From assembly GCA_029263315.1 (NCBI GenBank), contig JAJCXR010000003.1, positions 64,615 to 128,614 of the forward strand: a DNA stretch of 64,000 nucleotides, written 5' to 3'. Position 1 is the stretch's first letter. Every line of letters begins with the position of its first letter. The position numbers were made by a program, and so were the translations under genes. This DNA is from Acidobacteriota bacterium. GTDB taxonomy: Bacteria > Acidobacteriota > Thermoanaerobaculia > Multivoradales > J023. Under the pieces are notes generated by a model. That model made no database searches. It was not told the DNA's origin and saw only the letters and a program-made list of their open reading frames with translations. Shown piece by piece: positions 31,071 through 64,000 of the stretch.

Positions 31071-31472
31071 GTTGAAAATCCTCTTGCAGAACATCTGGGG
31101 TGGGCGGAATCCGCTCAGCGATCTCTGGAGACATCTACTGCTGCGACATCTAGCGGCAGACCTGAAGCGTACCGTAAATAAGGGGCCTCAATGTATCACC
31201 ACAGGGCTGGCGACGCACCCGGGAGGCCGGCAGCAGGCAGATGAGCCACATCAGGCGACCACCGACGGACCAAACGATTATGGTATCGTAGGATATCTCA
31301 GGGGCCCAGAATCACCACCTTCAGGCCACTTCGAAAGACCATCCGCAGAATCTCACCATGACCCACCCTCGAGTCTTACGAAACCGGGTCGCCACAGGAA
31401 CAGCCAAAGACCGGGGGACCTCCTCCGGCCTACGCCAGAGCTCATCGGGCTCGCACCACCGACGGAGACACC

Positions 31473-45426: not shown

Positions 45427-45674
45427 CGGGGATGGTGCACCGTCCCCAGGGGACACATCAGAGTAAGCCATGCTTCGCAGATTATCACGTCTCCGCCTCC
45501 TCCCAAGGGGCAGTTTGAGCACCGATCACAGCCCCCGACGAAGGGCGGTCGCAGCACCCGATATCCAACCGATCAGGCTTCGTAATAGTCGCTGTAAGAA
45601 TCGTGGTGCTATCTTTTCCTTACACTCCCGGCAGGGCCCCTGTACCCTGCTCAACACTCCAAGAGGTCCTATTT

Positions 45675-48600
45675 ATGTATCCGACTCCAAGTGCTCGTCG
45701 TCTTGGCTCTTCCCTAGGAGCCACCCTCAGCGCTCTGGTCCTCGGGCTTGCGGCCTACGGCCTGGCAGGTACTACGCCTGCATTTGCCGCCGGCCCCGGC
45801 TCGGTTGCGCCGACTACCCCAGTCTCCACTCCTGCGGCCGCCGCCGCGACATCGAGCAATACGCCGATGCCGTCTGATCTGACATCGACCTCGAGCTCCA
45901 ACACTTCGTCCTGGGGCGGACACGGTGGTGGTAGCCATGGAAGCAGCGGCAACCACGGTGGTGGTGGCGGCAACCACGGTGGTGGTGGCGGCAACCACGG
46001 CGGTGGTGGCGGCAACCACGGCGGTGGTGGCGGTAACCACGGTGGTGGCGGACACGGCGGTGGTGGCGGACACGGCGGTGGTGGCGGTCACGGCGGTGGC
46101 GGTGGTGGCGGTGGTCACGGCGGTGGCGGTGGTCACGGCGGTGGCGGTGGTCACGGCGGTGGCGGTGGTCACGGCGGTGGAGGCGACGGCGGTGGCTGTC
46201 CTGGTGGCCATGGAGGCGGCGGCGAAGATGACGACAACTGTCCGCGTACCCCCGGCTATTGGAAAAACCACACCGATGTTTGGCCGGTCGACGGCTTGAC
46301 CGTCGGCGGAATCTCCTACGACCAAGCCGATCTGCTCGCCTTCCTCAACTATGGCGGCTCCGACATGTCCATGAAGCTCGCACGCCACCTCACGGCGACG
46401 ATGCTCAATCTGGCCAACGGAACGGGAACCTCGATCCAGTCCGTCGTCGACGACGCCAATGACCTCTTGCAAAACAACCCACCGGGTTGCAATCCCCGCG
46501 GCAGCGTCAAGGCCATGGCCCGAGATCTCAAGAACCTCTTGGACGATTACAACAACTTCGGCGACTGCGGCGACTCCGGCGGCGGCGACGATGATGACGA
46601 CGATGACGACGATGACGACGACGACGATGACGACGATGATGACGACGACGATGACGACGATGACGACGGGACCTGCCCCCGTTCCCCGGGCTACTGGAAG
46701 AATCATCTCAGTGCCTGGCCGGTCGATAGCCTGACCCTCGGCGGCATCCCTTACGACCAAGCCGACCTGCTCATCTTCCTCCACTACGGTGGCCCCGACA
46801 TGTCCATGAAGCTGGCGCGGCATCTCACCGCGGCGATGCTCAATCTGGCCAATGGCGCGGGCACCTCGGTGCAGAGCGTCGTCGACGACGCCAATGACTT
46901 CTTGGCCATCATGCCGCCGGGTAGCCAACCGAGCGGCATGGACAAGACCTTGGCCAAGGACCTCAAGAATCTGCTGGACGATTACAACAACGGCGACGAC
47001 TGCGGCAGTGGCGATCCCGAGCCCCCGCCACCATGCTCCGCCGAGGCGCCCCTCGACCTCGTCTTCGTGCTCGACCTCTCCGGCAGCATGACTTCCAGCT
47101 TCCCGGCGGTCGGCAATCGCCTGGCCGCGGCCCAGACGGCGCTGCTGGCAATCAACGACCAGTTGCAAGCCCGGGGTGACGGCAGCCGGGCCGCCCTGGT
47201 GACCTTCGCAGGCTTCTGGACGGTCGAAGAAAACCTCAACCAAGCAGTGATCCTGCAGTCCGGCTTCACCTCGGATCTAGCCTCCTTGGAGCCGTTGATC
47301 TCGAGCTTCGATCCGATCGATATTCCGGCCGACGCCACGACACCCACGGCCCTCGCCCTCGAAGGCACCTTGAGCCTGTTGCTCGGCGAGTCGAACCCGA
47401 CCCACAAGCGGGCCATGGTCTTGGTCACCGACGGCGTGCCCAACATCGACCTCATGGGCCGCGGTGCCCTCGAGTACGAGTTGGAGGAGATCCAAGACAT
47501 CGACATCGAAGACGGCTTGGGCGGTTTCCTCAGCTGGCCGGCAGTATCACTGCTCGGCGGTTTCAACCCCGCCTACGGCACCTTTGATGGCCAAACCCTG
47601 AGCGACTCGATGCTGCAATTGGAGATCATGAAGTCCATGGTGCCCGACCTGCGCATTTTCGGTATCGCCTTGCAGGGTGACGGCATTGATCTAGGCACTT
47701 TCAATGAAGGTCTGCTGCGCTACAGCGCCGCCATCTCCGGTGGCGTCTCCTACAGCGCCAGCAACTTCAGCCAGCTCGAGATGATCCTCGACACCCTCGA
47801 CCTGGACTACGATTGCAGCGGCGATCCGCCGGTCGACCCCACCGAGCCTTCGTCGATCGGCGACCGGGTGTGGCAGGACGACAACGGCGACGGTGTACAA
47901 GACCCCGGCGAAGCCGGATTGAACGGTGTCACGGTGACCCTGCTGGACGACCAAAACATGGTGCTGCTGACCACCGTCACCACCGGCGACGGCGAATACC
48001 TCTTCGCCGGTCTGCCGGCCGGGGACTTCACCGTCGTCATCGACCCTGCCACCTTGCCGGCCGGCATCGATCAGGCGACCTATGACCTCGACGGCACCGA
48101 TACCTTGGATCAAGCCAGCGTCAGCTTGGCAGCCGGCCAGGACCTCGACACGGTGGACTTCGGCTATCGCGAGTTTGTGCCGCCGCCGTTGATCTGCGCC
48201 GTCGACACCTTCGACGGCCCTGAGCTCGATCCCGACTGGGCCTTCCGTTTCCTCGGCAACGCCTTCGAAGGCGGCGCCGAGATCGTCAACGGCGAGCTGT
48301 ACCTCAGCGGCAACGGCACCGAGCTTTACCATGGCGACGACAACGCTGGCTTCGTCTTCAAGACGGTGTCCGGTGATTTCCGCGTCGAGACCACCATCAC
48401 CGGTTTCCCGGTGGATATCGGTGGCCTGGTGCGCAAGGCCGGTATCCACGTACGGACGGCCTGGGACGATCCGCTGGCGCCACGGGTGATGGTCAATTTC
48501 ATCCCCCACCTGCCCAGCCCCGAGACCACGGCGTTGCAATTCGACGCCCGCATCTCCCAAGGGGCCACGGCGGTGGAGTTGGCCAGCAACGTGCTCGATG

Positions 48601-49661
48601 TCCCGTTGCCGGTGACCGTCGCCGTCGAGCGCCAAGGCGCCACCTTCACCGTCTCCTACAGCACCGACGACGGTGTGACGTGGATTCAGCCGACGGGTGC
48701 CCTCGGGGGCTCGGTGGCCATCGACGCCATGGACGCGACCTATGTCGGCATGGCCACCGCCTCCTACGAGTCGACCCAGGTGATGACGGCATCCTTCGAC
48801 GACTTCAACCTGTGCGGCTACGGTGGCGTGCCGGAGATCCTGCCGCCCCCCACCTCCGGCTGCGACGAAACCGAGGAATTCGACGTCATCTACCTGATGG
48901 ACCTGTCCGGTAGCATGGCGTCCTACTTCCAGAACGCCGGTACCGGGACGCGCCTCGAGGCTAGCCAGATCGCCCTGTCGAGCCTCAACGATTCCCTGGC
49001 CCTGCGGGGTGACGGCAGCCGGGCTGCCCTCATCACCTTCAGCGGTTTCCTCACCCCCGAGGAAAACCTGGCCGACGGCTACATCGTGCAGTCTGGCTTG
49101 ACCACCGACTTCGCCAGCCTGGAGACCTTGATCCAGAGCTTCGCGGTGGGCGATCTCCAAAACCTCGACACGACCCCGACGCCGCTGGCCTTGGAGGGTG
49201 CCCTGGAGACCCTCCTGGCGCAGGCGGATCCGACCCACACTCCGGCGGTGGTCTTGGTCACCGACGGTATCCCCAACATCGACATCCTCGGTGAAGGTGG
49301 CCCCGGGATCTATGACCTGGACGAAATCCAAGGCATCGTCCTCTACGACGGCGTGGGCGGCTTCCTGCCGGCCCTCGATGTCGCCCTGCTCGGCAACTAC
49401 AACCCCGGGCTCGACAACTTCGATGGCCAGGTCATGTCCGATGCCATGGTGCAGCTCGAAGGCCTGCGCACGGCGTTCCCCAGCATCGAGATCTACGGCG
49501 TCGCCCTGCAGGGCAACGGCTCGGATCTCGGCACCTTCAACGAAGGCCTGCTCGACTACGGGGCCTACTTGACCAACGCTCTATCGTTCAGCGTCAACAA
49601 CGCCGACGAGTTGGCCACCGCCATGGGGGTGCTCGAGTTGCAGCTCAGCTGCACACCTTGA
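45675..49661 (+). CDS. Giant secreted protein (1328 aa): signal peptide; Gly/His-rich low-complexity region; duplicated roughly 110-aa CPR(T/S)PGYWKNH…[11 protein letters not shown] domain separated by a poly-Asp run; two vWA (MIDAS DxSxS) modules; Cna-B/SdrD-B-like domain; LamG/beta-sandwich-like region
   Basis: Start at ATG 45675 with SD aagagg. Signal [25 protein letters not shown]. (GGGGHGGGG)n. 29 consecutive Asp. [12 protein letters not shown] and [42 protein letters not shown]. Confidence 0.7.
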   Translation: [1328 protein letters not shown]

Positions 49662-49701
49662 GGCTAGGTTGAGCGATCGAGCCCGATCGCTGACAGCACA
49701 A

Positions 49702-49729
49702 AGCCCCCGCCTCGGCGGGGGCTTTTTTG
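49702..49729 (+). terminator. Rho-independent terminator (aagcccccgcctcggcgggggcTTTTTTGTTG)
   Basis: Perfect GC-rich hairpin plus T-run, 40 nt after the stop of the giant secreted-protein gene. Confidence 0.85.
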
Positions 49730-49899
49730 TTGTGGGGCTCGAGTGAGCACTGCGGCCTACGATGCTTCTCCCCGCGGTTCGGCGGAAAGCAAACGCCCCG
49801 GCCCCGTTCGTCGACCCGAAGAGCTATTCAGATCGGGTGGCCATCGGCAAGAAGCAGCATCGTCTCCCCGTGGTATAATTCTACCCACAATTAATTCTA

Positions 49900-50095
49900 A
49901 AGATCTCGTCTGAGTCATCTTGTGGGCCTGGGCCTGAAGCTTCCCTTAGTGCACCTTTCCGGAAGTAGGGTGAGCTATCGAGAGCCCCGAGGCCCGCGTC
50001 CGCAAGGCTTGCGAGTGAGGCATCGTGGGGCTCTGTTGCAGCGAGCGTAACCCGCGGAGGTGGATGCATCGGGGCTCAAAATACCAGCGTCTTTT
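49900..50095 (+). other. Copy 2 of the duplicated intergenic element (see 11652..11826), ending 50 nt before the start of the giant membrane-protein gene
   Basis: catcgtggggctctgttgcagcgagcgtaacccgcggaggtggatgcatcggggctcaaaataccag, followed by gcgtcttttttt. Confidence 0.5.
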
Positions 50096-50145
50096 TTTGA
50101 AAAGGTGTACTTGGGGAGAGGGCCCGAGCCTCGGGAGGAGTCGTC

Positions 50146-53100
50146 ATGCTGCGCAAACCGGTATTCTGGGTGTCTTTTGTCGCCCTCTCCATCGTCGCCT
50201 GGTGGTTCACCCTAAGCACCTTCGAGCAGGCCTACCCGGTGGTCGATCTAGAGCTGACGATGAACCGCAGCGGCGCCCTGGCCAAGGCCGAGGACCTGGC
50301 CTCCCGTCATGGTTGGGGACCACCAGGGGCGACACAGGCAGTCGCCTTCGAGCGGGACGAGACCGTGCAGGTCTTCGTCGAGCTCGAGGCCGGCGGCAAA
50401 GCCGCCTTTCAGGAGATGCTGGCGGCAGATCTCTATGCTCCCTATAGCTGGAAGGTCCGCCGATTCCAGCCCGGCCATACGACGCAGGGCGAGGTCCGTT
50501 TCACTCCGGACGGCGAGCCCTACGGCTTTCGCATCAAGCTGCCAGAAGACGCTCCGGGAGCCAGTTTGGAACCGGCGGCGGCCCGTCGCTTGGCCGAGGA
50601 TGCCGCCGCCGGTGACTGGCGCGTCCACTTCGCCGACTTCGAGCTCATCGAAGGCTCGCAGGAAATGCGTCCCGGCGGACGCACCGACCACACGTTTGTC
50701 TACCAACGTCAGGCACAAAGCCTGGGCGAAGCTCGCTACCGACTCCGCTTGGTGGTCAGCGGCGACCAACTCAGCGAGCTCAGCCACAGCGTCGCCATTC
50801 CGGAGACCTTCCATCGCCGCTTGGCGCAGCTGCGGGCCGGCAATCAGGCCCTCTCCTCCGCCGGCAGGATCGTCATGCTGGTGCTGCTGCTCGGCGGCGG
50901 CTGTCTGACGGGCCTCCTCTTCCTTCTCCGACGACGGGCCCTGTTGTGGCGACAGGCATTGGTTTGGGGGGCAACGATCGGCCTGCTGCAGCTGATGGCC
51001 GGGCTCAATCGATGGCCCCTTTGGTGGATGGAGTACGACACCGCCGTCGGAGCCAAGAGTTTTGTCATCGAAACGATCTTCAACCTGTTTTCAGAGTGCG
51101 TTTGGCTCACCTTGGGCACGGCGTTCGTTTTCATGGCAGCCGAGGGCTTGACCCGCTATGCCCTGCCCGATCAGATTCAGCTCTGGCGTTCTGCGTCGGC
51201 GGCGGCAAGCCCACAGATCCTCGGCCGAACCGCAGCGGCCTACCTGCTGGTTGGCCCCTACTGTGCCTACAAAGTGGCTTTCTTTCTCTTCACTTCCCAA
51301 AACCTCGGTTGGTGGTCACCGGCCTCCCACCTTTCGGACCCCAACATCCTCGCCACGTGGTTACCGTGGCTCAACCCCATCGCCGCAGCCCTGCGGGCTG
51401 GATTCGCCGAGGAATGCCTGTTCCGGGCCCTGCCGTTGGCCATCGCCACGCTGCTCGGGCGGCGCTTCGGACAACCGCGCCTGTGGATCGGCGCCACCTT
51501 GATACTGCAAGCCGTGATCTTCGGCGCCTCTCACGCCAACTATCCCAACCTGCCAGCCCATGCGCGATTGGTGGAGCTGATCCTGCCTTCCATTCTCTAT
51601 GGCTTGATCTACTTGCGCTTCGGCCTGTTGCCGGGAATCCTCCTGCACTTCGCCTTCGATGTCCTGGCCTTTGGCCTGCCGGTGCTCGTCTCCACCGCCC
51701 CCGGCGCGGCGATCCACCTGACAATGCTGGCATTGATCACCCTCCTCCCCATGGCAGTGGTACTGCTGGCGCGCTGGCGTCAAGGTCGCTGGGGCGAGGT
51801 CGACGGGACCCTCCTCAACGGCTCATGGGTACCCCCACCTGCCACTGCGGAGACGCCAGGACGATGGGCACCGAGCCGCCAACTGGACCTGCCAGGCTAC
51901 CGCTGGCTCTATGTAGCGGCGGCTGCGGGGGCCGCTCTGTGGCTGGCGACGAGTCGCTTCGAGTCCGATGCTCCACGCCTCCAGGTCGATCGGAGCACAG
52001 CCATCACGGCCGCCCGGCAAGAGGCCCAGAACCTGGGCTGGGAGCTGAGCCCCCATGCCACCGTGCTCGGCCAAGTGCGCTTCGAGCTCGATGATGGCCA
52101 CCGCTTTGTCTGGCAGCAAGGGGGACGCCAACTCTATGATTCATTGCTGGGCAGCTACCTGCGTCCGCCACGTTGGCACTTCCGTTTTGTCAACTTCAGC
52201 GGCGAGGTTACGGGGCGGGCCGAAGAGCACCAGATATGGATCGATGGGAGGGGCCAAGCCTTTCAGCACTGGCATCGACTACCGGAGGACCGGGACGGCG
52301 CCAACCTCGAGGCCGGGAACGCCAGAACCTTGGCCCTGGCAGCGCTGGCCAGCCGCTACGGCCTGGGGCCAGACCAGCGGATCGAGATATCCGCCCTTCC
52401 GTCACAACGCCCCTCCCGCCGGGATTGGCAATTCACCTTCGAAGACCCCACCGTGCTGCCCGAGACCCCCGGCAAAGCGCTGGCGACCGTCCTCATCGCG
52501 GGCCACGAGGTGATCAGCTCTTTCCGTCAAATCCAACCACCGGAATCGTGGCGCCGGGCCGAAAGGGAACATGCTGCGATCGGCGAAGTGCTGCACCAGG
52601 GGAGCCGACTGTGCTTTTTCTTGGTCTGCCTCGGCGGACTACTGGCGGCGGTGTACCGCTGGAGCCAGCGACGGCTCGCCGGTCGAGGGACCATCCTTTC
52701 CTTGACCCTTCTCAGCCTGCTGGCGGTTGTCATCCTGATCGACCTCTGGCCCCTTCTCCAGGCCGAGCTATCCACCTCCCGGGCTCCCGGCCTGCAGATG
52801 ACAGCTAAGCTCAAGGGCATCCTACCGCCCGCCATCGGCATCCTGGTCGCCGTGGCCCTGCAGATCGGCTTCACCCTGCGCTGGCCTCCGTTGCGCACCC
52901 CGAAAAACCTTCGAGCCGCGTTGCTCCCGGGCTTAGCCCTGGGCACTGTCTGGGCCGGCCTGGCGGCGCTCGTTCTGCGACTGAGGCCGTCTTCGCTGCC
53001 CATCTGGCCGGACTTCACCGTCGCCGGCAGCGCGCTACCTTGGCTGGGCGCCAGCCTGCATCCGCTGGCAACTTTTTTCATCGTCGCTTTGCCAACAGTC

Positions 53101-53556
53101 TGGATCGTCGTCGGTGCGGACCACCTCACCGCCGGATGGCAGCGGCGGCGCGGTTTGGCAGCCTTGCTGATGATCGGTTTGGCGATCGGCTTCACGGGTT
53201 GGTCGGTCGACGACCCATCCCTGTGGTTCTGGCAAGGCTTGCTCTTGGGGGGCTCCCTCCTCGCAGCCTACATCCTGGTACTTCGTCACCAGCTCTCCCT
53301 GGTCGTGCCCGCCGTCGCCGGCGCGGTGGCCTGGCAAACCCTCGGCCAAGGGATTCTGCGGGCTTACCCTGGGGCCTTGCTCGGCAACCTACTTGCCGTC
53401 GTCGTGATCCTGCTGGTGGCTCTGTGGTGGGTACGGGCTCTGGCCGACGACACCATGCCCGCCGCAAGGTCAGTCGAAGCAGAAAGCGCAGGACAACCTA
53501 ATCTTGGTGCAGGGCTTCGATCGGATCCACCGAGGCGGCACGAACGGCAGGTATGA
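50146..53556 (+). CDS. Giant polytopic membrane protein (1136 aa) with an embedded CPBP (CAAX protease / bacteriocin-processing, Abi) intramembrane metalloprotease domain
   Basis: CPBP motifs in order: EECLFRALP (motif 1), FGASHANYP (motif 2), HFAFDVLAF (motif 3). More than 15 predicted transmembrane segments. Large soluble domains at residues 30-230 and 560-750. Confidence 0.65.
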   Translation: MLRKPVFWVSFVALSIVAWWFTLSTFEQAYPVVDLELTMNRSGALAKAEDLASRHGWGPPGATQAVAFERDETVQVFVELEAGGKAAFQEMLAADLYAPYSWKVRRFQPGHTTQGEVRFTPDGEPYGFRIKLPEDAPGASLEPAAARRLAEDAAAGDWRVHFADFELIEGSQEMRPGGRTDHTFVYQRQAQSLGEARYRLRLVVSGDQLSELSHSVAIPETFHRRLAQLRAGNQALSSAGRIVMLVLLLGGGCLTGLLFLLRRRALLWRQALVWGATIGLLQLMAGLNRWPLWWMEYDTAVGAKSFVIETIFNLFSECVWLTLGTAFVFMAAEGLTRYALPDQIQLWRSASAAASPQILGRTAAAYLLVGPYCAYKVAFFLFTSQNLGWWSPASHLSDPNILATWLPWLNPIAAALRAGFAEECLFRALPLAIATLLGRRFGQPRLWIGATLILQAVIFGASHANYPNLPAHARLVELILPSILYGLIYLRFGLLPGILLHFAFDVLAFGLPVLVSTAPGAAIHLTMLALITLLPMAVVLLARWRQGRWGEVDGTLLNGSWVPPPATAETPGRWAPSRQLDLPGYRWLYVAAAAGAALWLATSRFESDAPRLQVDRSTAITAARQEAQNLGWELSPHATVLGQVRFELDDGHRFVWQQGGRQLYDSLLGSYLRPPRWHFRFVNFSGEVTGRAEEHQIWIDGRGQAFQHWHRLPEDRDGANLEAGNARTLALAALASRYGLGPDQRIEISALPSQRPSRRDWQFTFEDPTVLPETPGKALATVLIAGHEVISSFRQIQPPESWRRAEREHAAIGEVLHQGSRLCFFLVCLGGLLAAVYRWSQRRLAGRGTILSLTLLSLLAVVILIDLWPLLQAELSTSRAPGLQMTAKLKGILPPAIGILVAVALQIGFTLRWPPLRTPKNLRAALLPGLALGTVWAGLAALVLRLRPSSLPIWPDFTVAGSALPWLGASLHPLATFFIVALPTVWIVVGADHLTAGWQRRRGLAALLMIGLAIGFTGWSVDDPSLWFWQGLLLGGSLLAAYILVLRHQLSLVVPAVAGAVAWQTLGQGILRAYPGALLGNLLAVVVILLVALWWVRALADDTMPAARSVEAESAGQPNLGAGLRSDPPRRHERQV

Positions 53557-55936
53557 AGCAAGCGACCGCGGCGACCGACAGCAGCAGGAGAGCGGTCAAA
53601 CCAAACGTCATCGGATCCATCGGCTGCAGGCGAAAGAGGGCTCCCCGCAGGGCGAATCCCAAAGGCACGGCCAAGGCCAATCCGATCAGCAAGCCGACGG
53701 ACGCCCGCATCAGGCTCTGTCTGAGGACCAAGGTGAGAACGTCACGGGAGGTGCCGCCCAGAGCCATACGCACCCCCATTTCTCGGGTACGCTGCGCGAC
53801 CCGAAAAGCGATCACACCATACAGCCCGATGGTGGCCAAGAGAACCGCCGCGGCACCGAAAATGCTGAACATGGTCCCCAACAGAATGGGGAAGAACATG
53901 GCCCGGGAGACCACCTCCTGCATCGGCCGGAGATAAAACAACGGCAGGTTGGGGTCGATCTCTCGCACCGTCTGCCGCAACGTCTCGGCAAAGGCCATCG
54001 GTTCCTGAGCTGTCCTGACCACAATCCAAGCCTCGGATTTCGGATACTGGTCAAAGGGAAAATAAATCGCCGGAGCGTCGCCGGGATTGTCAAAGTCTCC
54101 GAAGTGCAGGTTGGGAGCCACGCCGACCACCTCCGCCCAACCGCTATCCGGATCCTCGGGCTCGTTCTTGCCCCGCCACAGACGCAGCCGTTGACCGATG
54201 GCATTCTCGCCCGGCCATTGCTGTCTGGCCAATGCCTCGCTGACCAAGACCACCGCTGGAGCCGCTTGGCGATCCGACGCCGTCACGCCACGGCCATGGC
54301 GGACGGCGACACCGAGGGTTTTCAAATAACCGGGGGTGATTCTCAGGAACCGGGCCACCGGCATATCGGACGCTTCGTCGTAGGCAGTTCCCCGCACCAG
54401 GTACCTCGCCGACACCGAAGTGGTGGTATCCAAAGGCAGAATCGTCCCGATACCCGCCGCGCTGACCCCAGGCTTGGCGGCCAGCCTTGACTCCAAATCC
54501 TCAAAGAAGGCCTGCCAATCTTCCCGCTCCGGGTACTTCGCATCGAACAACGCTAGGCGGGCGGTCAATATCTGCTGCGGCTCAAGATGTAGATCGTAGT
54601 TGTTGATCGTGGCCACGGTCCGCACCATCAGACCGGCACCGATCAACAGGGGAAACGACACCGCCAGTTGGATGATGACCAACTTACGGCTCAGCCAACC
54701 CATGCGGAAGCTGCTCGAACCGCGAGCCGCATCCTGTAGCACCCGGTTCAGGTCCGGCTTTGACGCCTGCCAGGCCGGTCCCAAGCCGGCCGCCAGCGCC
54801 GCCAGCACGGTGACACCAAGGGTGAAGAACAACACCCGGCCATCGATCTGAAACGACACCCAGAAAGGCGGATCCATATCGGCGATGCTGGCGCTCAGAG
54901 CCCCGACGGCGAGATGCGCCAGCATCACACCGACGGCGACTCCGCCGGTCGCCAACAAGCCCGCATCCAACAGCACTTGACCCAGCGTTTGAGCACGGCT
55001 GGCCCCTAAGGCCGAGCGGATCGCCAGCTCATGTCCCCGCGATGCGGCGCGGACGATCAACAGATTCGCCACGTTGATCGAAGCGATCAGCAAGACCAGC
55101 AGCGTCGCCGCCAACATCACCCCCAGCAACAGTTGGGCGCGTTGGTCGATGAAGGAGTCGACATAGGGCTTGACCGCCACTCCGATGCCCTTGTTGGCCT
55201 CGGGATACTGTTCCTCCAGGCGTCGGCCGATGGTCTCCATCTCAGCCGCCGCCTGTTTGATGGAGACGCCGTCGGCCAAACGGCCAAAGACCCCGAGGCG
55301 CATTCCGGAGCCCCGCTCCGTCTCACCGGGCGACAACTGCAAAGGCAACCAAACGTCGTGCCGGAAAGGGAAACGGAAACCCGGTGGAAGCACACCGATC
55401 ACCGTCGACGGTTCGGCGTTGACCCGCACGACCCGGCCCACGATGTCGGGGTCGGAGTCGTAGCGCTGTCGCCACACATGGTGACCGATGAGCAAAACAG
55501 GGGGTGCCCCCGGCCGTTCGTCCTCAGCGCGGAATCCCTGCCCTAGGAAAGGCTTGACCCGCAGCAGGTCGAGGAAGCTAGCCGAGATCCTGACGCCGTG
55601 GTAGCGCTCCGGCAGGTACTCGTCGCTCAGGTTGACGGTGATCGGATCGAATCCGGCCAAAGCTTCGAAACTCTGCTGCTGGCTCCGCCAGTCGACAAAA
55701 TCATGCTCGCTGACCCGCGTTCCGCTGGGGGACGGATTGAAATCCCGCTGCTCCAACTGCAGCAAACGCTCGGATTCTTCGAAGGGCAAACCGCGCAAAA
55801 CCGCCCCGTCGATCACCGCAAACATCGAGACGGTCAGGCCGATCCCCAACGCCATGGCCAAGACGGCCCCGAGACTGGAACCTGGGTTCTTGATCAATCG
55901 CCGGAGACTGTAACGAAGCTCGCTGAAAAGGCTCAT
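53498..55936 (-). CDS. FtsX-family ABC transporter permease with duplicated domains (ADOP / MacB-like, no fused ATPase)
   Basis: ADOP-type N-terminus MSLFSELRYSLRRLIKNPG. Two FtsX 4-TM modules, each preceded by a large periplasmic domain. 812 aa. Confidence 0.8.
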   Translation of the reverse strand: MSLFSELRYSLRRLIKNPGSSLGAVLAMALGIGLTVSMFAVIDGAVLRGLPFEESERLLQLEQRDFNPSPSGTRVSEHDFVDWRSQQQSFEALAGFDPITVNLSDEYLPERYHGVRISASFLDLLRVKPFLGQGFRAEDERPGAPPVLLIGHHVWRQRYDSDPDIVGRVVRVNAEPSTVIGVLPPGFRFPFRHDVWLPLQLSPGETERGSGMRLGVFGRLADGVSIKQAAAEMETIGRRLEEQYPEANKGIGVAVKPYVDSFIDQRAQLLLGVMLAATLLVLLIASINVANLLIVRAASRGHELAIRSALGASRAQTLGQVLLDAGLLATGGVAVGVMLAHLAVGALSASIADMDPPFWVSFQIDGRVLFFTLGVTVLAALAAGLGPAWQASKPDLNRVLQDAARGSSSFRMGWLSRKLVIIQLAVSFPLLIGAGLMVRTVATINNYDLHLEPQQILTARLALFDAKYPEREDWQAFFEDLESRLAAKPGVSAAGIGTILPLDTTTSVSARYLVRGTAYDEASDMPVARFLRITPGYLKTLGVAVRHGRGVTASDRQAAPAVVLVSEALARQQWPGENAIGQRLRLWRGKNEPEDPDSGWAEVVGVAPNLHFGDFDNPGDAPAIYFPFDQYPKSEAWIVVRTAQEPMAFAETLRQTVREIDPNLPLFYLRPMQEVVSRAMFFPILLGTMFSIFGAAAVLLATIGLYGVIAFRVAQRTREMGVRMALGGTSRDVLTLVLRQSLMRASVGLLIGLALAVPLGFALRGALFRLQPMDPMTFGLTALLLLSVAAVACFIPAVRAASVDPIEALHQD

Positions 55937-55937
55937 C

Positions 55938-56891
55938 TCAAGTCATTGGGGCCGGCGACGATCGCGCCAACGCCTCAATGCAGAGGGCTGTCGTGATCTC
56001 CTCCGAACCGTAATACCCTTCATCGAAATCAATGTAGTAGGCCGCCCGCGGCCAACTGCCGTCCTCGTTCTGGCGATCGAGCAAGTAGCGTACCGCTGCG
56101 GCGAGGATCGATGGCTCAGCATACCCAAGATTCAGCAGGCTGGCCACCGCCATGGCGGTGTGAAGGACACTGCCCCCAAGCCCCCCATCGCCGTCTTGGC
56201 GAGCCAGAATTCGTTCGCTGGCCGCTGACCGTGCCGCCGCCAAGCGCCTTACGCCATGGAAGTAAGCCCGCGACAACACATAGAAAAAGAGTAGGTCGTC
56301 GACACCGTAGACAGTGCGTTTGCCCTCCTCGCCGTCGGTGGTGAGATGGACCAAATAGTCACACGCCGCCAGGGTCTCCGGTCGTTCGCCCAGGTAGAGA
56401 AGCACGTTGGCGTTGACCAGACCACACACATTGTTGGCCCCACCGTCGCTGAGGAAGGTGCGGAATCGACCGTCGGCATCGCGGTTGAGCAGAAAGAGCC
56501 GATAGTTGAGCCCCAACAGCAAGTAGTCGTGAGCGTCCTTCAGCACATAGGCCGCGCAAGCGGTGTCGTCGAGGTCCGGCGGCAAGGTTTCGGCATTCCC
56601 CAGGCTGAAGTAGCGCCACAAACCCGGGGCTTCCATTTCCCCGAGCAGAAAGGTGGAACCACGGGAGACGATGGAGGGCACCCGAAGGTCGTCACTGTAA
56701 GCCAACGAGTAGAGGATATAGGAGGTGCCATAGGGCGTGCTCTTGAGTTGAGGATTGGCTTCCATCGCCAGGTCACTATAACGATAGGTCTTGAGCTCGC
56801 CGCTGGGCAACTGTTGCCGATCGAGAAAACCGACCGCGCGGGACAGAGCTGTGCGGACCCGCGTCGCTGCCGCTTCCTCAGCCGGATTCAT
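55938..56891 (-). CDS. Prenyltransferase / squalene-oxidase repeat (alpha/alpha-toroid) protein, 317 aa
   Basis: LLDRQNEDGSWP is the canonical QxxDGSW repeat of prenyltransferase-beta / terpene-cyclase folds. Further degenerate repeats (LNRDADGRF, LARQDGDGGLGG). Confidence 0.55.
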   Translation of the reverse strand: MNPAEEAAATRVRTALSRAVGFLDRQQLPSGELKTYRYSDLAMEANPQLKSTPYGTSYILYSLAYSDDLRVPSIVSRGSTFLLGEMEAPGLWRYFSLGNAETLPPDLDDTACAAYVLKDAHDYLLLGLNYRLFLLNRDADGRFRTFLSDGGANNVCGLVNANVLLYLGERPETLAACDYLVHLTTDGEEGKRTVYGVDDLLFFYVLSRAYFHGVRRLAAARSAASERILARQDGDGGLGGSVLHTAMAVASLLNLGYAEPSILAAAVRYLLDRQNEDGSWPRAAYYIDFDEGYYGSEEITTALCIEALARSSPAPMT

Positions 56892-58156
56892 GGCGTCGAC
56901 TCCAGCTCTTTTTTATCCGCCCCCACCGCCCGCCGTGCCGCGACCCAAGTGGAGACCAAACGGCCGACCGAGACCAGGGGGCGGAGGACAATCGAGCGAA
57001 ACATACGCCACCCTATGTAAACCATGAACAGGGCCATGAAGCCGGACATCAACAGCGAGGAAAGACTCACCTCCGGGGATCCGGCGGCGAAGGCCATCAC
57101 CTTGTCGGGAAACAGTCGCACGGAGCTCCAGACGCGAGGGGCGATCTTCCAAATGAAAAAACCCCACACCGCAATGCTCAAGACCGAATAGACGGCCAGC
57201 GTGGCAGTCACCCGTTCCGACCACGGTAACTCCTCCGCCGGCCGGCCCCGCAAGCGATGCCAATAGTGCTTGATGATGCGGCTAGGCTGACGACTGAGAT
57301 TGGTGACTCCTAGGGCATCCGCCAGCATCCAATAGCCGTCGAACTTGAAAATCGGGTTCAGCGAAAACAGCGAGCTGCCGGCGATCATCAAGATGCCGAC
57401 CCCGAGGGGCTCCCAACCGGTGAGGCTGTATGCCACGAGATAGACAGCCGCCGTCAACCATTGGAAGTAGAGGCCCCCGAGATCCACTACGACCCGCTGC
57501 TTGCGTTGCAGGCGCCAGGCCGAGCTGACGTCGCTGTAGAGGGCAGGGTAGATCAAATAGAAGGTGAATCCGATGTCACTGGGCCGGGCTCCATAGTAGG
57601 CGCAGGCCGTGGCATGGCCCAGCTCATGGAACACGATCGACAACATCAGGAGCGCGTAGCCGGCCCAGAAACTAGAGTCGTGAAACTGCTTGGTCAGGGG
57701 TTCGGCCCCCCAAATCGCAAAACCCATGGCGACGCTGAGAAGTAGCGCGGCGACCACTTGGGGCTTGAATAGGGGCGTCAGGACAGAGACGATCCGCACC
57801 ACCGCGACTTCGGGTAGGAGCCGAATGCGGAACCAGAAACCCAAGGGATTGTCGTTGGCATTGTCTTCAATGCTCTCGATACGCTCGAGCAATTTCTGAT
57901 ACTTCGCCTCGAGCTCCTCACCGGAAATGGTGCTCCCTTGGGACCGCGACAGTGCCGCGGCGATCTCCTCGGAGCTGACACCCGATTGCCGGAGCTGCAA
58001 TAGCCGATGGGCGCTGGCCGACAAACGCATGTTGCTGCCGTTACGACCGCTCAACAAATAGGTCGGTTTGGCCTCGGAGATATCGACCTGCCGACGCTCC
58101 GTCAAGCCGATCCAGCGGGGTCCTTCCACCGTCTCTTGGGCGCCGCCGGTTGTCAT
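56888..58156 (-). CDS. Membrane-embedded zinc metalloprotease, M50/site-2-protease-like (HExxH within a transmembrane segment), with N-terminal cytoplasmic domain
   Basis: LSIVFHELGHATACAYYG in a hydrophobic segment. About 8 transmembrane segments. Start at MTTGG (58156), avoiding overlap; the track ORF to 58201 is over-extended. Confidence 0.55.
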   Translation of the reverse strand: MTTGGAQETVEGPRWIGLTERRQVDISEAKPTYLLSGRNGSNMRLSASAHRLLQLRQSGVSSEEIAAALSRSQGSTISGEELEAKYQKLLERIESIEDNANDNPLGFWFRIRLLPEVAVVRIVSVLTPLFKPQVVAALLLSVAMGFAIWGAEPLTKQFHDSSFWAGYALLMLSIVFHELGHATACAYYGARPSDIGFTFYLIYPALYSDVSSAWRLQRKQRVVVDLGGLYFQWLTAAVYLVAYSLTGWEPLGVGILMIAGSSLFSLNPIFKFDGYWMLADALGVTNLSRQPSRIIKHYWHRLRGRPAEELPWSERVTATLAVYSVLSIAVWGFFIWKIAPRVWSSVRLFPDKVMAFAAGSPEVSLSSLLMSGFMALFMVYIGWRMFRSIVLRPLVSVGRLVSTWVAARRAVGADKKELESTP

Positions 58157-60102
58157 GGCGTCGCCTCTTCCATCGTCGAGGCGCGAGCGAGCCGATGCCA
58201 AAGGACTGCCGAGCGTAGAACAAAGGCCGTCGTCAGATCACAGATACCTGATACCCCCTGAATTCGCTGCAGCAAGCTCTGCGCCCGCTCGAGCTCGTCC
58301 AGGTCAATGGCCCGGGTGCGGACGCGGGCCCGCCCTTGGGCCAAGGCGAGCCCCTGAAGCGCCAAGGCAGCGCTCATAGCGTCGCTGGCCGACGCGCCCC
58401 AGTCGGCGCTTCGCCACGCCTGCCGCAGGAAAGACTCGGCCCGTCCCACCACCGAAGATGTCGAACGCAGGGCGACCAAACAACGCAAGCAAGCCACGGT
58501 GGGATACAGACCACGATAGGCGCTGCTGCGCCAACTACCGTCGGCTTGCTGCTGCTCTTCGAGCCAGGTCAAACCCCGCTCGATGGGCTCCGCAAATCGC
58601 TGCCCGTCGAAGAGAGCCAGGGCTTCCAAGAGTTGGGCCGTGACCGCCGCATCCGGCTCACCCACGGGCAGCGTCTCACCCTGTGGCGATCGCCGGATCC
58701 AAGTCTCGACGGCCCCATCGGGTCGCAACACACCAAAATCTTCGAGCTGAGACAGGAGTTGGGCACAGTGTTGCTCGGCATCTTCTCGGCGTCCGGCGCG
58801 TAGTAGGATGCGCAGAATCAAACCCAGATGATCGCTGTCGGCAGGTAGCCCCATGGAGACCGCAGAATAGCTCCAGCCGCCACCGGGGCGGCGGCGGTAG
58901 ACGAGATAGTCCACTTGGCTTTGAATCAGCGGTTGCAGTTGGCCTTCCAAGAGGCTGTCGACGTCGCAGAGGGCATCGGCCGCCATGGCCAATGGCAGCA
59001 CATCGCCTACTTTCGAAGTGACGTCTCGCCCTGCGTCGGTGGGCCGCCTTCCACCGCTAGCACCCCATCGGTGCAAGATTCGCTGCACCGCATCCCATGC
59101 CACCTCCTGCCAGGCATCCGAGGGCGGTGGCAGGGCTACGGCAAGCCGACGGGTTGTCGCCTGCCGCTTCTCGGCGATGTGCTCGAGTTGTTGCAACACA
59201 GCCTGGCAGCGTTCGCGGATCGCCGACGTTTGCCGGTGCCAGAGCAAATCCGGATAGCCCTCGGTCAAGCGCTCCGACTCGGCGATGGCTTCCAGGGCAA
59301 GCCTCATGGTGTATCCCACATGGCCACCGTAGTATATCTCGCGACGGGTGCGCTCTCCGTCGGCTCGCAGTTGCCGACGGTCGCCAGCAAAGGCCGCAGC
59401 GGTGACGCGGCTGAGCAGCAACGAAGGAAAACCACTTTCAAGATCCGCCCGCCAGTCGGTCAGATCATCGAGCATCTGTCGAGCTGTGTAATAGCGTTCG
59501 ATGCTTTGGGTCAACGGTTCGTAGCACCGATCGTCCTTGGCCAACGCCGCCAGTCCCGCGACGGAAACTTTGGCCAGGCCGCACTTGCCGACCGCGACCG
59601 AGACCGCCTGCGCTTCCGTGAAACGCTCCCAGCTCGCCTCCGGACTAGCCAGCTCACGTTCCAGGAGACAGGCTTCGGTATAGGCGACCCAATAGTCGCG
59701 GAAACGGTTCCAAAAGGGGTCCGTCGATTCGATAAGGGGATGCAGGAGGCGATAGCCCTCGAACTGCATGACTTCGATGCCCAAGACATCGCCGGTGATG
59801 TGCTCGGTCTCTTCGTCCATCACTCGATCTGCAACGATGATGGAATCGAAGATCAGGCCGGCACCTCGGGCTAGAGGCTCGACCTGGGCCAGCTTCAAGT
59901 CTGGAAAGGCATCGAGGAAAAGGTAGGGGTAACCGTGGTAGATCGAGTCGGGGTCGCTGCATTGGTGTCTCACACCCTTCGGCCATGCCCCGACCGCCAG
60001 CGCACGGGTCGCCGCGGAGTCGACCATCAGGCGCTGTATCTCTGGCGGAAAAAGGCCTGATGACACGTCCTTCGGAGGCGACGCCTTGGTGTCGCTGGTC
60101 AT
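58153..60102 (-). CDS. Terpene-cyclase / prenyltransferase-like alpha/alpha-toroid repeat protein (649 aa) with an unassigned N-terminal domain
   Basis: C-terminal half holds QxxDGSW-type repeats (LEEQQQADGSWRS, YRRRPGGGWSY). The N-terminal 300 aa are unassigned and include an acidic segment QMLDDLTDWRADLESG. Confidence 0.5.
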   Translation of the reverse strand: MTSDTKASPPKDVSSGLFPPEIQRLMVDSAATRALAVGAWPKGVRHQCSDPDSIYHGYPYLFLDAFPDLKLAQVEPLARGAGLIFDSIIVADRVMDEETEHITGDVLGIEVMQFEGYRLLHPLIESTDPFWNRFRDYWVAYTEACLLERELASPEASWERFTEAQAVSVAVGKCGLAKVSVAGLAALAKDDRCYEPLTQSIERYYTARQMLDDLTDWRADLESGFPSLLLSRVTAAAFAGDRRQLRADGERTRREIYYGGHVGYTMRLALEAIAESERLTEGYPDLLWHRQTSAIRERCQAVLQQLEHIAEKRQATTRRLAVALPPPSDAWQEVAWDAVQRILHRWGASGGRRPTDAGRDVTSKVGDVLPLAMAADALCDVDSLLEGQLQPLIQSQVDYLVYRRRPGGGWSYSAVSMGLPADSDHLGLILRILLRAGRREDAEQHCAQLLSQLEDFGVLRPDGAVETWIRRSPQGETLPVGEPDAAVTAQLLEALALFDGQRFAEPIERGLTWLEEQQQADGSWRSSAYRGLYPTVACLRCLVALRSTSSVVGRAESFLRQAWRSADWGASASDAMSAALALQGLALAQGRARVRTRAIDLDELERAQSLLQRIQGVSGICDLTTAFVLRSAVLWHRLARASTMEEATP

Positions 60103-60151
60103 CGGGCAGGCTCGGGCATCAATCGGGTTCCTCCCCGTGGCACCGCAACGT

Positions 60152-60190
60152 CAAAGGCAAAAGATGGGCGCGACCTTTGACGCGCCCATC
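60152..60190 (-). terminator. Rho-independent terminator or attenuator directly downstream of the precursor-peptide gene (minus-strand hairpin gatgggcgcg-tcaaaggt-cgcgcccatc then TTTTGCCTTTG)
   Basis: Direct reading. It sits between the precursor stop (60197) and the next minus-strand gene start (60102). Confidence 0.6.
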
Positions 60191-60196
60191 ATCTTC

Positions 60197-60376
60197 TCAA
60201 ACCAAAACCGGCTCGGAAGGCTCACTCGGCTCGACGCTGAAAGACCCACAATTCACGTCGCACCACAGGCCATCGGCGCCCACCGCAGCGGCGAGCTCAA
60301 TGCGGCGTTCCAGATCCTCGACGTCGAGATCCTCAGCGTTCAGGGATTCAATCTCGAGAAGTTTCTCATCTTTCAT
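60197..60376 (-). CDS. RiPP-like precursor peptide (59 aa): acidic helical leader plus Cys-containing core
   Basis: MKDEKLLEIESLNAEDLDVEDLERRIELAAAVG | ADGLWCDVNCGSFSVEPSEPSEPVLV. Strong SD gaaaggaagaagcg before ATG 60376 (the track start at 60406 is a TTG over-extension). Own terminator. Flanked by a radical SAM/SPASM enzyme, a protease and a permease. Local AT-rich DNA. Confidence 0.6.
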   Translation of the reverse strand: MKDEKLLEIESLNAEDLDVEDLERRIELAAAVGADGLWCDVNCGSFSVEPSEPSEPVLV

Positions 60377-61015
60377 CGCTTCTTCCTTTCTGAAAAGGGG
60401 TTTCAAGGATCGAGCATGGCCTTCCTAGTGGTCAGGCTATACCCTAGGCTACACGCCTTCTTTATCTTCGGCCCTTGCCGACCGAAGTGCCGAATCTCGG
60501 CTTCAACCTTATCTTCAACATTCCGCGTAACCAACCCATCCGGCAGCCACCTCACTTGGCAGCCGAAGCAAGCCGACTGCACAGACTTCATCACGAGCGT
60601 GGAGCTGTGCTACCCATCTCCTTTGCCGAAATCGTACTTCTCAAGAAACTATTGTGCTTCAGTTGAATTCGACGCACCTTATCCTTATCCATAGCCAGGC
60701 CGACCCCACTCTGGATTGGCGTATAGGTAACGCCTTACAAGCTTTCAACTTACCTAGCACGATATTTGAGACCTGAGAAAATGTCAATAGCGAAGTTGAA
60801 AGGTGAGTGTTTCCGAGAGCTGAGAATCGGGCGGCATGCCGGGCCGCCGGACAAGAGATCGCAAACCCGAGGGATCCGGTTTGAAACGGCTGGCCATCCT
60901 GTACAATCTGAGGTTGATCGTTCTAATCAAGTTTTGGCAGCTCAACCTTGGCGGTTGAGCCTGAGCAAGGCTACGGCAATCAACTCGTGTCAGCTCGGCC
61001 CCACCGGAGAATCGA

Positions 61016-61999
61016 ATGAGCCAGAAAACAACCTCGAAGCAAACTTCTGGACAGTCGACGCCAGACGACGCCTCCGCCATCGATTTGCACAACCTCTCAG
61101 AACCTCTGTTGCAACGATTGCAGCAGCTAGAAGCCTTGAATGGGTACGACCAATGTTTCCACCGCGCCGTGCCCAACAACTACGTCTATATGCTGATCAA
61201 TGCCAGCTATCCACTGGAAGACTACTTGGCCGGCATTGCCACCAACACGGCACCACTCAATCGTGCCAATGGCCGTGTCTATCGATACTGTGTGGACAAG
61301 GTTAAGGAGCTACCACGGCAGGCTGTGCTCGGAAACGATGAGCTGATTCAATGGTTGGGCGGATGGAAAAAAACGACAACCACCTCGGTCAATCTCAAAG
61401 GGGTGGCCTTTGCCGAGAAGGTTTTTGCCTTTCTCGCAGACGCAGGCCTCGACGCCCGACGCCGCTGGCGAACAGAGGCTCCTGAGATGCATGACATGTT
61501 CACGCGGCAGATCCCCCACAAGATCGAGCATCTTCTGCGACTCAATCTGAGCATCCCCCATGACCTGGTGACCCAGTCCCTACAACGGCTGATGGATGAG
61601 GTATTCGGGGCTTCCGATACATTCTCATTGATCGAACGGGTTGAGGTCGCCAAACCCAACCTCAGCAATGACACCTCAGTGACGAATTACCCAACCATCA
61701 TCCTTTACCTCGTCGTTGATGCTAACGAGCCGGCGCGCCGTGACGAAGTCGATCAGCTGTTGCGTCTACTTCATCCGTGGGCTGCCGGTTTTGAGCACGG
61801 CCTCGGGGCGGAGTCGGACTTCGCCGACCTATGGTACCCATTCCTCACAGTTACCCAAGGGTACAAGCTTTGGAAACGGTACTTGCGGGTGGTGGGATTG
61901 CTCGACGAAGTCTACGACCGGGACTTCAACTATGCCTATTTGAGAGGCAGGCCAACACTTAGGAACTTTCCGCAAGTCCTATCCCAGTACCGGCCTTAG
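61016..61999 (+). CDS. Hypothetical protein (327 aa), no recognisable domain, low-GC gene inside the RiPP-like locus
   Basis: Long ORF with SD ggaga. GC clearly below the genome average. Converges on the radical SAM gene with a 13-bp gap. Confidence 0.5.
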   Translation: MSQKTTSKQTSGQSTPDDASAIDLHNLSEPLLQRLQQLEALNGYDQCFHRAVPNNYVYMLINASYPLEDYLAGIATNTAPLNRANGRVYRYCVDKVKELPRQAVLGNDELIQWLGGWKKTTTTSVNLKGVAFAEKVFAFLADAGLDARRRWRTEAPEMHDMFTRQIPHKIEHLLRLNLSIPHDLVTQSLQRLMDEVFGASDTFSLIERVEVAKPNLSNDTSVTNYPTIILYLVVDANEPARRDEVDQLLRLLHPWAAGFEHGLGAESDFADLWYPFLTVTQGYKLWKRYLRVVGLLDEVYDRDFNYAYLRGRPTLRNFPQVLSQYRP

Positions 62000-62012
62000 T
62001 ACACCTATCCTC

Positions 62013-63521: not shown

Positions 63522-64000
63522 TGTTACTCCTCCTTGAGCCCACACGGACTCTAACGCCTGCGTCAACCTGTCGACGGGGCTTCTACTTCTAGAGATGGGA
63601 GAGACCACGACGAGGCTACACGCTTGCGGGGGAACCTGTCAAGACGAAAAGACCTCCCGCGATGGTGCCCAGCACGCCACGGCCGTGAAGGCGTCAATGC
63701 CCTAATCGACAATACCCTTCGGGTTGGTCGGCCGAGAATGGCCTTTGGCGACAACTTCGAGCGCTACGCTGCTGGGTCAAAGACGCCGATGGCATGCCGC
63801 TGGGTCAGCTCTTCAGGTGGCGATGGGAGCAAGGCCATCTTGCTCCGTCCCCCACTGGGGAGTGCAGCGTCGCTGCTAGCAGTCTGTGGTGAAAGTGCTG
63901 CGCGAATGAGAGCGAGATTTTTTTCGTCAGAACAAGGCGCAGAATTGCATGAATATTGGTGATCTTCAGAGATTCTGTAACACAGTTCTGGCGGAAAAGG

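Follow-up and report, generated by a model that had tools for sequence, protein, structure and literature searches.

A single-chain, tandemly duplicated CPBP-family protein that joins an active-type protease module to a predicted inactive copy of itself and to putative PepSY-like extracytoplasmic domains

In Rce1, the helices that bear the catalytic motifs are the fourth, fifth and seventh transmembrane helices of the core. Rce1 (including MmRce1) and short bacterial CPBP proteins such as MroQ and MrtX share the motifs EExxxR, FxxxH and HxxxN/D on consecutive transmembrane helices, except that an extra helix separates FxxxH from HxxxN/D. Prokaryotic CPBP proteases are abundant and mostly unexplored (PMC11980579); among them, MrtX sorts dispersed surface proteins (PMC11980579; bioRxiv 10.1101/2023.06.07.544157). 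CPBP folds can also work without catalysis, as presenters or chaperones, in APH-1, LnsB and SpdC (PMC7387801). Outside the CPBP family, the PepSY domains of YpeB hold the envelope hydrolase SleB inactive (bioRxiv 10.64898/2026.06.01.729290), and CopD provides an example of PepSY control of penicillin-binding proteins (PBPs) (PMC10653890). Here we describe a gene from an Acidobacteriota bacterium (GenBank assembly GCA_029263315.1, contig JAJCXR010000003.1, positions 64,615 to 128,614 of the forward strand; this stretch of 64,000 nucleotides is the window to which all coordinates below refer). It is complete and uninterrupted, lies at 50146..53556 on the plus strand, starts with ATG and encodes 1136 amino acids plus a stop codon in a single chain. 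Judged by its sequence, the product joins an active-type CPBP module to a second copy of that module which has degenerated and lost its catalytic residues.

The protein shares the three motifs and their helical arrangement with Rce1 and the short CPBPs and, like MrtX, it occurs without an obligatory gene neighbour. It differs from them in being four to five times larger, with 20 predicted transmembrane helices, in its internal duplication with an inactive second module, and in its two putative PepSY-like domains on the extracytoplasmic side; it also fits no NCBIfam CPBP subfamily and is too distant from the solved structures for a sequence match. A previous interpretation of this DNA, made without database searches (the sequence-only reading), had judged the protein to be at least four times larger than typical CPBP/Abi proteins of 200-300 residues; a roughly fourfold difference stands when the 239 amino acids of MrtX are taken for comparison (PMC11980579).

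When residues 361-546 were scanned as a separate segment, they matched PF02517 (Rce1-like) with 43.8 bits against a cut-off of 22.4 (E 3.1e-11), over positions 2-92 of the 93 in the profile, which delimits a CPBP/Rce1-like catalytic core at residues ~405-506 (51358..51663, plus strand). The Pfam scan of the full-length protein was empty at E <= 1, an outcome that HMMER composition filters acting on a long hydrophobic protein would explain. NCBIfam scans of the full-length protein and of six segments found no CPBP subfamily, myxosortases included, at E <= 10, and their sole matches were three unrelated, sub-threshold ones. Many homologues are likewise without a precomputed Pfam assignment. Automated annotation and scans of full-length proteins with hidden Markov models can overlook the CPBP domain in this family.

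All three catalytic motifs lie within this core on the plus strand: motif 1, EECLFR (E422, E423 and R427; residues 422-427, 51409..51426); motif 2, FGASH (F459 and H463; residues 459-463, 51520..51534), at the outer end of a transmembrane helix; and motif 4, HFAFD (H501 and D505; residues 501-505, 51646..51660). The seven residues named are invariant in 119 of 119 homologues, and so are further charged residues of the surrounding bundle, D298, E333, R337, R474 and E477. The AlphaFold2 (AF2) model places EE..R on helix 409-441, F...H at the end of helix 444-462 and H...D on helix 494-509/511-515, with a motif-free helix (471-492) between the last two, and hydropathy agrees. By its profile match, its motifs and their placement on successive transmembrane helices, the protein belongs to the CPBP/Rce1-like family as that family is defined at the sequence level. 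Both the genuineness of the core and the integrity of EExxxR, FxxxH and HxxxD, as claimed in the sequence-only reading, are thus borne out by the profile score and the invariance of the motif residues.

The protein is also a tandem duplication of a module of ~550 residues, consisting of an anchor helix, a domain of ~210 residues and ~9 transmembrane helices. Profile-profile comparison of family sub-alignments with hhalign related the N-terminal half to the C-terminal half with a probability of 99.8% (E 2.2e-30) across 412 columns that start at the anchor helix, span the soluble domain and reach into the bundle, aligning N-half positions 19-462 with C-half positions 52-473. Compared separately, the two soluble domains, S1 and S2, gave a probability of 99.5% (E 6.7e-23), and the first bundle helices (residues 238-322 against 818-897) one of 80% (E 1.4e-5). 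The AF2 model of the whole protein, with a mean predicted local distance difference test score (pLDDT) of 88.7 and a predicted template-modelling score (pTM) of 0.85, mirrors the order of helices and strands between the halves, and the helix count of the C bundle matches that of the N bundle. This collinearity, together with the order and number of the helices, suggests a CPBP-like fold for the core of the C module as well.

Catalytic residues are absent from this second copy throughout the family, although the module is kept at its full length. The C-module columns opposite E422, E423 and R427 hold changing, non-acidic residues (T/L/S, G/S/Q and L/F/A, respectively), the C bundle contains no conserved Glu, and its sole conserved His, H911 (84 of 119 homologues), sits at a predicted cytoplasmic helix end; overall, the N half is better conserved than the C half. 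The C module combines homology to an active module with loss of the catalytic residues and in that sense is a pseudoenzyme, with the caveat that its core segment, taken by itself, gives an E-value of 0.15 (see below). Because the catalytic residues are invariant in the N module and lost in the C module, catalysis appears to be under selection in the former. The sequence-only reading had correctly recognised extra transmembrane bundles and domains around the CPBP core; the homology of the two halves shows that these are not accessory additions but a second, inactive copy of the entire module, which that reading had missed.

Several described systems resemble parts of this arrangement. Like APH-1 of gamma-secretase, LnsB and SpdC/LyrA, the C module appears to be a CPBP-derived bundle without catalytic residues that is presumably kept for presentation or scaffolding (PMC7387801). 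It departs from them in that the inactive copy, whose core fold is suggested by the helix pattern described above, is covalently fused to an active-type copy of the same fold rather than partnered with an unrelated enzyme. A further parallel is found next door, in the ADOP-type permease encoded by the convergent neighbouring gene, since permeases of this type also carry an anchor helix, a periplasmic domain and a transmembrane bundle duplicated in tandem in one chain; their fold and function are unrelated, and both permease copies keep their domain signatures, whereas one copy in the CPBP protein has degenerated. Active and inactive copies within one chain offer a natural test of how non-catalytic copies of a protease fold aid substrate handling.

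We predict 20 transmembrane helices, with both termini and the linker between the modules inside and with S1 and S2 outside the cytoplasm. In order along the plus strand, the N module starts with transmembrane helix 1, an anchor that runs from inside to outside (residues 5-27, 50158..50226; hydropathy, AF2 helix 5-29). Its homology to an internal helix at residues 582-602 suggests that it anchors the chain and is not removed as a signal peptide. It is followed by S1 (residues 28-235, 50227..50850), delimited on the AF2 model and predicted to be periplasmic, and by a bundle of ~9 helices that includes the CPBP core (residues 236-546, 50851..51783), drawn from the AF2 helices and with loop charges that fit the positive-inside rule. 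Within the bundle lies a family-specific motif, PLxWMxYDTA (residues 291-300), and conservation per 25-residue window is mostly 0.64-0.85, with a dip to 0.55 at residues 301-325. A predicted cytoplasmic linker of low conservation (0.42-0.49), lower pLDDT and an average of 4.1 Lys plus Arg (residues 547-581, 51784..51888) leads into the C module. This begins with transmembrane helix 11, the anchor that AF2 (helix 582-602) and hhalign identify as the counterpart of helix 1 (residues 582-602, 51889..51951), and continues with S2, placed by its homology to S1 and likewise predicted to be periplasmic (residues 603-815, 51952..52590), and with the degenerate bundle of ~9 helices without catalytic residues, assigned from AF2 and hhalign (residues 816-1104, 52591..53457). 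The chain ends in a disordered tail (residues 1105-1136, 53458..53553) with pLDDT below 50 and a conservation of ~0.05, that is, not kept in homologues.

The orientation follows from the family-averaged number of Lys plus Arg per loop in the 20-helix arrangement: 1.9 in the N-terminal stub before helix 1, 1.1-2.2 in short inside loops and 4.1-4.6 in longer inside loops, as opposed to 0-1.0 in short predicted-outside loops, the exception being one single-residue predicted-inside loop with none. Because these charges alternate as the positive-inside rule demands, S1 and S2 are placed on the extracytoplasmic side, in keeping with the two extracytoplasmic domains of about 200 residues that the sequence-only reading had proposed; they measure ~210 residues each. 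In this topology H463 marks the outer end of its helix, E422 and E423 are ~11-12 residues deeper than the outer end of theirs, and H501 and D505 lie at about mid-membrane. We infer from these helix positions that the active site is located below the soluble domains, within the periplasmic half of the bilayer.

An AF2 model of S1, computed for residues 28-240 from a 20-sequence alignment (pLDDT 88.5), shows two consecutive units, each with one helix packed on four strands, and the order of elements in S2 of the full-length model is the same. The top match of S1 in a Foldseek search of the PDB was 5BOI, the C-terminal domain of Bacillus megaterium YpeB (probability 1.00, E 1.3e-3, 184 columns, query-normalised template-modelling score (TM-score) 0.47), followed by DUF2874 proteins. 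The 5BOI domain is itself a tandem PepSY domain. For the S2 region, two homologues yielded matches to PF16244 (DUF4901, 'YcdB, YcdC repeated domain'), one with 32.5 bits against a cut-off of 27 (P0114) and the other, below that cut-off, with 24.6 bits (P0064). S1 and S2 are therefore probably tandem PepSY-like domains at the level of fold, and not members of the Pfam PepSY families; repeat-versus-repeat homology within S1 or within S2 was undetectable by hhalign. Both domains have in common with YpeB and other PepSY/DUF4901 proteins the tandem helix-plus-four-strand units placed outside the membrane beside an anchor. They differ in being inserted between transmembrane helices of a polytopic protease rather than forming a separate regulator, and S1 has 11% sequence identity to the YpeB domain. 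S1 equals the catalytic core in conservation, its invariant residues including V78, E79, L80, E81, G83, G84, R179, D181, P219, E220 and F222, and the two domains share the invariant positions W-x-V-R, R-x-D and, at the junction with the next transmembrane helix, P-E-x-F/W. The pairing of PepSY-like domains, which have been linked to the control of extracytoplasmic hydrolases, with an adjacent intramembrane protease is unexplored.

The family to which the protein belongs is large and uniform. A search of ~5.8 billion proteins returned 628 homologues, of which the best 120 have 39-57% identity, nearly all of them 1069-1141 amino acids long and mostly with ~97% query coverage. An outlier of 1493 amino acids (P0021) carries an N-terminal class-III aminotransferase fusion (PF00202, E 8e-62) that may stem from gene calling or assembly. 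Where homologues are named at all, the names are generic ('CPBP family intramembrane metalloprotease/glutamic endopeptidase' or 'YdiL'). When one genome was scanned per species, at least 563 matches were confirmed, and the 80 loci kept from it are all collinear with the query, nearly all from residue 1 to ~1100, the shorter ones lying at contig ends. Among the matches listed, the carriers, labelled by record titles that may be imprecise for metagenome-assembled genomes (MAGs), comprise many classes of Acidobacteriota; Calditrichota, including Caldithrix abyssi; Gemmatimonadota, KSB1, Ignavibacteria, Neomarinimicrobiota, Fidelibacterota, Latescibacterota, TA06 and Eisenbacteria; and Elusimicrobia, Cytophagia/Chitinophagales, Opitutia, Planctomycetota, Chloroflexota and one Chondromyces MAG. 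An exhaustive search with the S1 profile against 1.84 billion representatives at 50% identity found 2003 at E <= 1e-3 and at least 770 clusters at E <= 1e-30; of the 150 that scored best, almost every one is ~1100-1170 amino acids long and matches in two stretches. The duplicated architecture of active and inactive copies is therefore ancient and fixed.

Split or single-module relatives were sought among these 150 representatives, the best ones, in lists that the full-length family saturates, and the short entries proved to be contig-end fragments or frameshifted calls; one of them (P0238) is cut off where its 2,237-bp contig stops. The question raised by the sequence-only reading, whether homologues are fused or split in relatives, is answered accordingly for the relatives covered: they are full-length and collinear. 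A paralogue within the window was considered in the 1116-residue open reading frame (ORF) at 34219..37569 on the minus strand, which turned out to be SbcC-like instead; the region 34219..38534 (minus strand) holds this SbcC-like gene (1116 amino acids; AAA_23, SbcC_Walker_B) and an SbcD-like gene (412 amino acids).

The gene itself is not new, as hundreds of members are already deposited in databases and annotated there simply as CPBP proteins. In the searchable literature we found no description of the duplicated active-plus-inactive architecture, of tandem PepSY-like ectodomains on a CPBP protease (searches for CPBP or CAAX together with PepSY, and for DUF4901, yielded nothing relevant), or of the size and breadth of this CPBP family. 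With at least 770 clusters at 50% identity and high conservation over many phyla, this CPBP family goes by no more than generic labels in databases.

Taking these features together, we consider it probable that the protein is a stand-alone inner-membrane CPBP (Rce1-like) glutamic endopeptidase, tandemly duplicated and acting as a single-chain pseudo-heterodimer. In such an enzyme the N module would hydrolyse a membrane-anchored or membrane-proximal envelope substrate, which the inactive C module and the two periplasmic PepSY-like domains may recognise, gate or present, in analogy with the non-catalytic CPBP folds of APH-1, LnsB and SpdC and with the way in which the PepSY domains of YpeB hold a hydrolase. 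Because the family is widely distributed and has no operon partners, this CPBP protease with a built-in inactive partner would more plausibly have a housekeeping role in the envelope than a locus-specific one; an identity of ~40% across phyla and the absent operon partners suggest a core envelope role in poorly studied lineages.

Several points weigh against this interpretation. The full protein, the S1 profile and the CPBP-core profile each found no meaningful match when PDB sequences were searched, and a Foldseek comparison of the PDB with the full-length model gave only ABC-transporter noise at a TM-score of ~0.07; these searches did not demonstrate likeness to the solved Rce1 structure (MmRce1, 4CAD). 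The protease-core counterpart in the C module (residues 955-1105), compared in isolation with residues 400-546, shows no detectable similarity by hhalign (E 0.15). The PepSY assignment is made at the level of fold, with a modest TM-score of 0.47; S1 and S2 of this protein had zero Pfam matches at E <= 10, and S1 of 20 family members had zero as well, none to PepSY families. Finally, the orientation of the active site derives from helix positions and not from coordinates.

A bolder version of the same idea, which we regard as speculative, is that the protein represents an unrecognised, phylum-spanning protease of envelope biogenesis, in which the inactive CPBP copy and four PepSY-like repeats capture dispersed membrane-anchored substrates and present them to the active copy. 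If so, surface proteins that are lipidated or anchored by their C-terminus would be among the candidate substrates, and the protein would follow, in bacteria and within one chain, the logic of APH-1/presenilin or iRhom. It might also be the missing sorting enzyme for a signal that is still unassigned in Acidobacteriota, Calditrichota, Gemmatimonadota and related phyla.

A different weighting of the same domains would make the protein mainly a non-proteolytic scaffold or regulator, whose four periplasmic PepSY-like repeats bind and regulate enzymes of the envelope, for example hydrolases or synthases of peptidoglycan, and whose CPBP fold is a membrane platform. This has some appeal, given the PepSY-like fold of S1 and S2 and the conservation of S1 as strong as that of the catalytic core, which suggests a conserved binding partner. 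There are precedents both for non-catalytic CPBP proteins, in SpdC/LyrA, LnsB and APH-1 (PMC7387801), and for regulation of cell-wall enzymes by PepSY proteins, in YpeB/SleB and CopD/PBPs (PMC10653890; bioRxiv 10.64898/2026.06.01.729290). The known non-catalytic CPBPs, however, have lost their catalytic residues (PMC7387801), whereas the N module keeps all seven in every homologue compared and only the duplicated C module has lost them. We therefore think a scaffold without proteolysis unlikely.

Somewhat more doubtful still, if compatible with the data, is a sorting endopeptidase of the myxosortase (MrtX) kind, which would remove a C-terminal anchor from, or otherwise process, dispersed exported and possibly lipidated proteins. 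The substrates of MrtX are scattered in the genome and were found through phylogenetic profiling rather than adjacency (PMC11980579; bioRxiv 10.1101/2023.06.07.544157), which would suit a gene without conserved context, and the position of the active site in the periplasmic half of the membrane, as inferred above, would suit such a role too. One protein encoded in the window ends with a tail that resembles a tripartite sorting signal, IPALGRWG followed by a transmembrane helix and RLRRA. On the other hand, NCBIfam myxosortase models match no segment of the protein at E <= 10, no cognate signal was identified, and 1136 residues with 20 transmembrane helices are a far cry from the 239 residues of MrtX.

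Among the C-termini in the window, that of a protein of 614 amino acids with multihaem-cytochrome-like Pfam matches (29250..31094, minus strand) is ...IPALGRWGMWLLAFGLAFLAIGRLRRA, which looks like a tripartite sorting signal with an IPTL/PEP-CTERM-like motif, a transmembrane helix and a basic tail. Two large secreted-looking proteins end differently: the 899-residue M12/reprolysin-like protein with fn3 (31473..34172, plus strand) in ...SAFATCP and the vWA/SdrD_B protein (45603..49661, plus strand) in ...LELQLSCTP. The Cys-(x)-Pro-stop ending common to both may be a coincidence or a shared C-terminal feature.

The immediate surroundings of the gene invite a locus-specific explanation, and the sequence-only reading had proposed one, in which the protein is a processing or self-immunity protease (Abi/CPBP-like) for the neighbouring vWA protein or for a cluster resembling those for ribosomally synthesised and post-translationally modified peptides (RiPPs) with an ADOP exporter. 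Many short bacterial CPBPs do act in bacteriocin immunity or processing (PMC7387801, PMC11980579; established family knowledge), and the gene sits between the secreted vWA/SdrD_B protein of 1352 amino acids on its upstream side and a run of permease, cyclase-like, two small-ORF and radical-SAM genes on its downstream side. Yet the vWA gene is followed by a strong intrinsic terminator (49700..49735, plus strand; an 11-bp stem with 8 G-C pairs, then a T run) and by a gap of 484 bp (49662..50145) before the CPBP gene begins, and the two genes are therefore separate transcription units. On its other side the CPBP gene is convergent with the RiPP-like run, which lies on the minus strand.

Conservation argues in the same direction. 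Four homologues that lie on contigs of 0.6-2.2 Mb are each flanked by wholly different genes, and all-against-all clustering of the ORFs at 84 homologous loci found no real neighbour family in more than 10 of them; of the genes that adjoin the CPBP gene in the window, the vWA, cyclase-like and radical-SAM ones recur at 0 of 84 loci and the ADOP-type permease and a kynureninase at 2 each. PADLOC gave no match, conserved adjacency to a bacteriocin or RiPP operon, as would be expected of an Abi/CPBP immunity protein, was not found, and orthologues with ~40% identity occur in many phyla. The CPBP gene is thus a stand-alone unit without conserved neighbours, and a role tied to the vWA or RiPP-like locus, which we hold to be very improbable, is largely refuted by this lack of conserved context. 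In annotation, the CPBP gene should be kept apart from the RiPP-like and vWA loci.

That the ORF is an artefact, either a gene pair fused by frameshift or a shorter gene with an internal start, can be dismissed with near certainty: high G+C sequence does yield long spurious ORFs (many shadow ORFs were seen here) and the Pfam and NCBIfam scans of the full-length protein are empty, but hundreds of genomes hold full-length collinear homologues with a conserved start codon, the full-length AF2 model is confident, and the sole half-length database entries are the fragments and frameshifts mentioned above, so that this reading is refuted. The annotated start is the true one, because a ribosome-binding site precedes it and the N-terminus is conserved. 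A Shine-Dalgarno-like GGGAGGAG, read from the sequence (50133..50140, plus strand), lies 5 nt 5' of the ATG, and the N-terminus MLRKPVFW fits the family consensus MFRKPxFW, in which M1 and W8 are conserved in at least 95% of homologues. The sequence-only reading was right to treat this as one real gene; none of the circumstances that it had named as fatal to its view, namely a shorter gene with an internal start, two genes joined by a frameshift or CPBP motifs that are not conserved, applies.

At its 3' end the gene overlaps the end of the convergent ADOP-type permease gene by 59 bp (53498..53556, by ORF coordinates), exactly as the sequence-only reading had it, and the overlap is independent of the choice of start codons because both ends are stop codons. 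It stems from the disordered, non-conserved tail of the CPBP protein. The permease (53498..55936, minus strand; 812 amino acids, two MacB_PCD/FtsX modules) ends in ...RAASVDPIEALHQD*, which to our eye resembles the ends of MacB/FtsX permeases. It is the last gene of the minus-strand run 53498..63608, which also contains SQHop_cyclase-like genes (weak matches) at 55938..56891 and 58153..60102, an unassigned ORF of 437 amino acids and a radical-SAM gene at 62013..63608; the matching contig has two additional small ORFs, of 59 and 62 amino acids, in this run. The run is the RiPP-like locus of the sequence-only reading and is unrelated to the CPBP gene by conservation.

In the 484-nt gap 5' of the CPBP gene, an Rfam scan found nothing beyond sub-threshold matches on the terminator hairpin. 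The gap contains an extended -10-like element, TGGTATAAT, at 49871-49879, and the predicted fold of the leader (49885-50150; -113.5 kcal/mol) is somewhat more stable than that of shuffled sequence (z -2.7).

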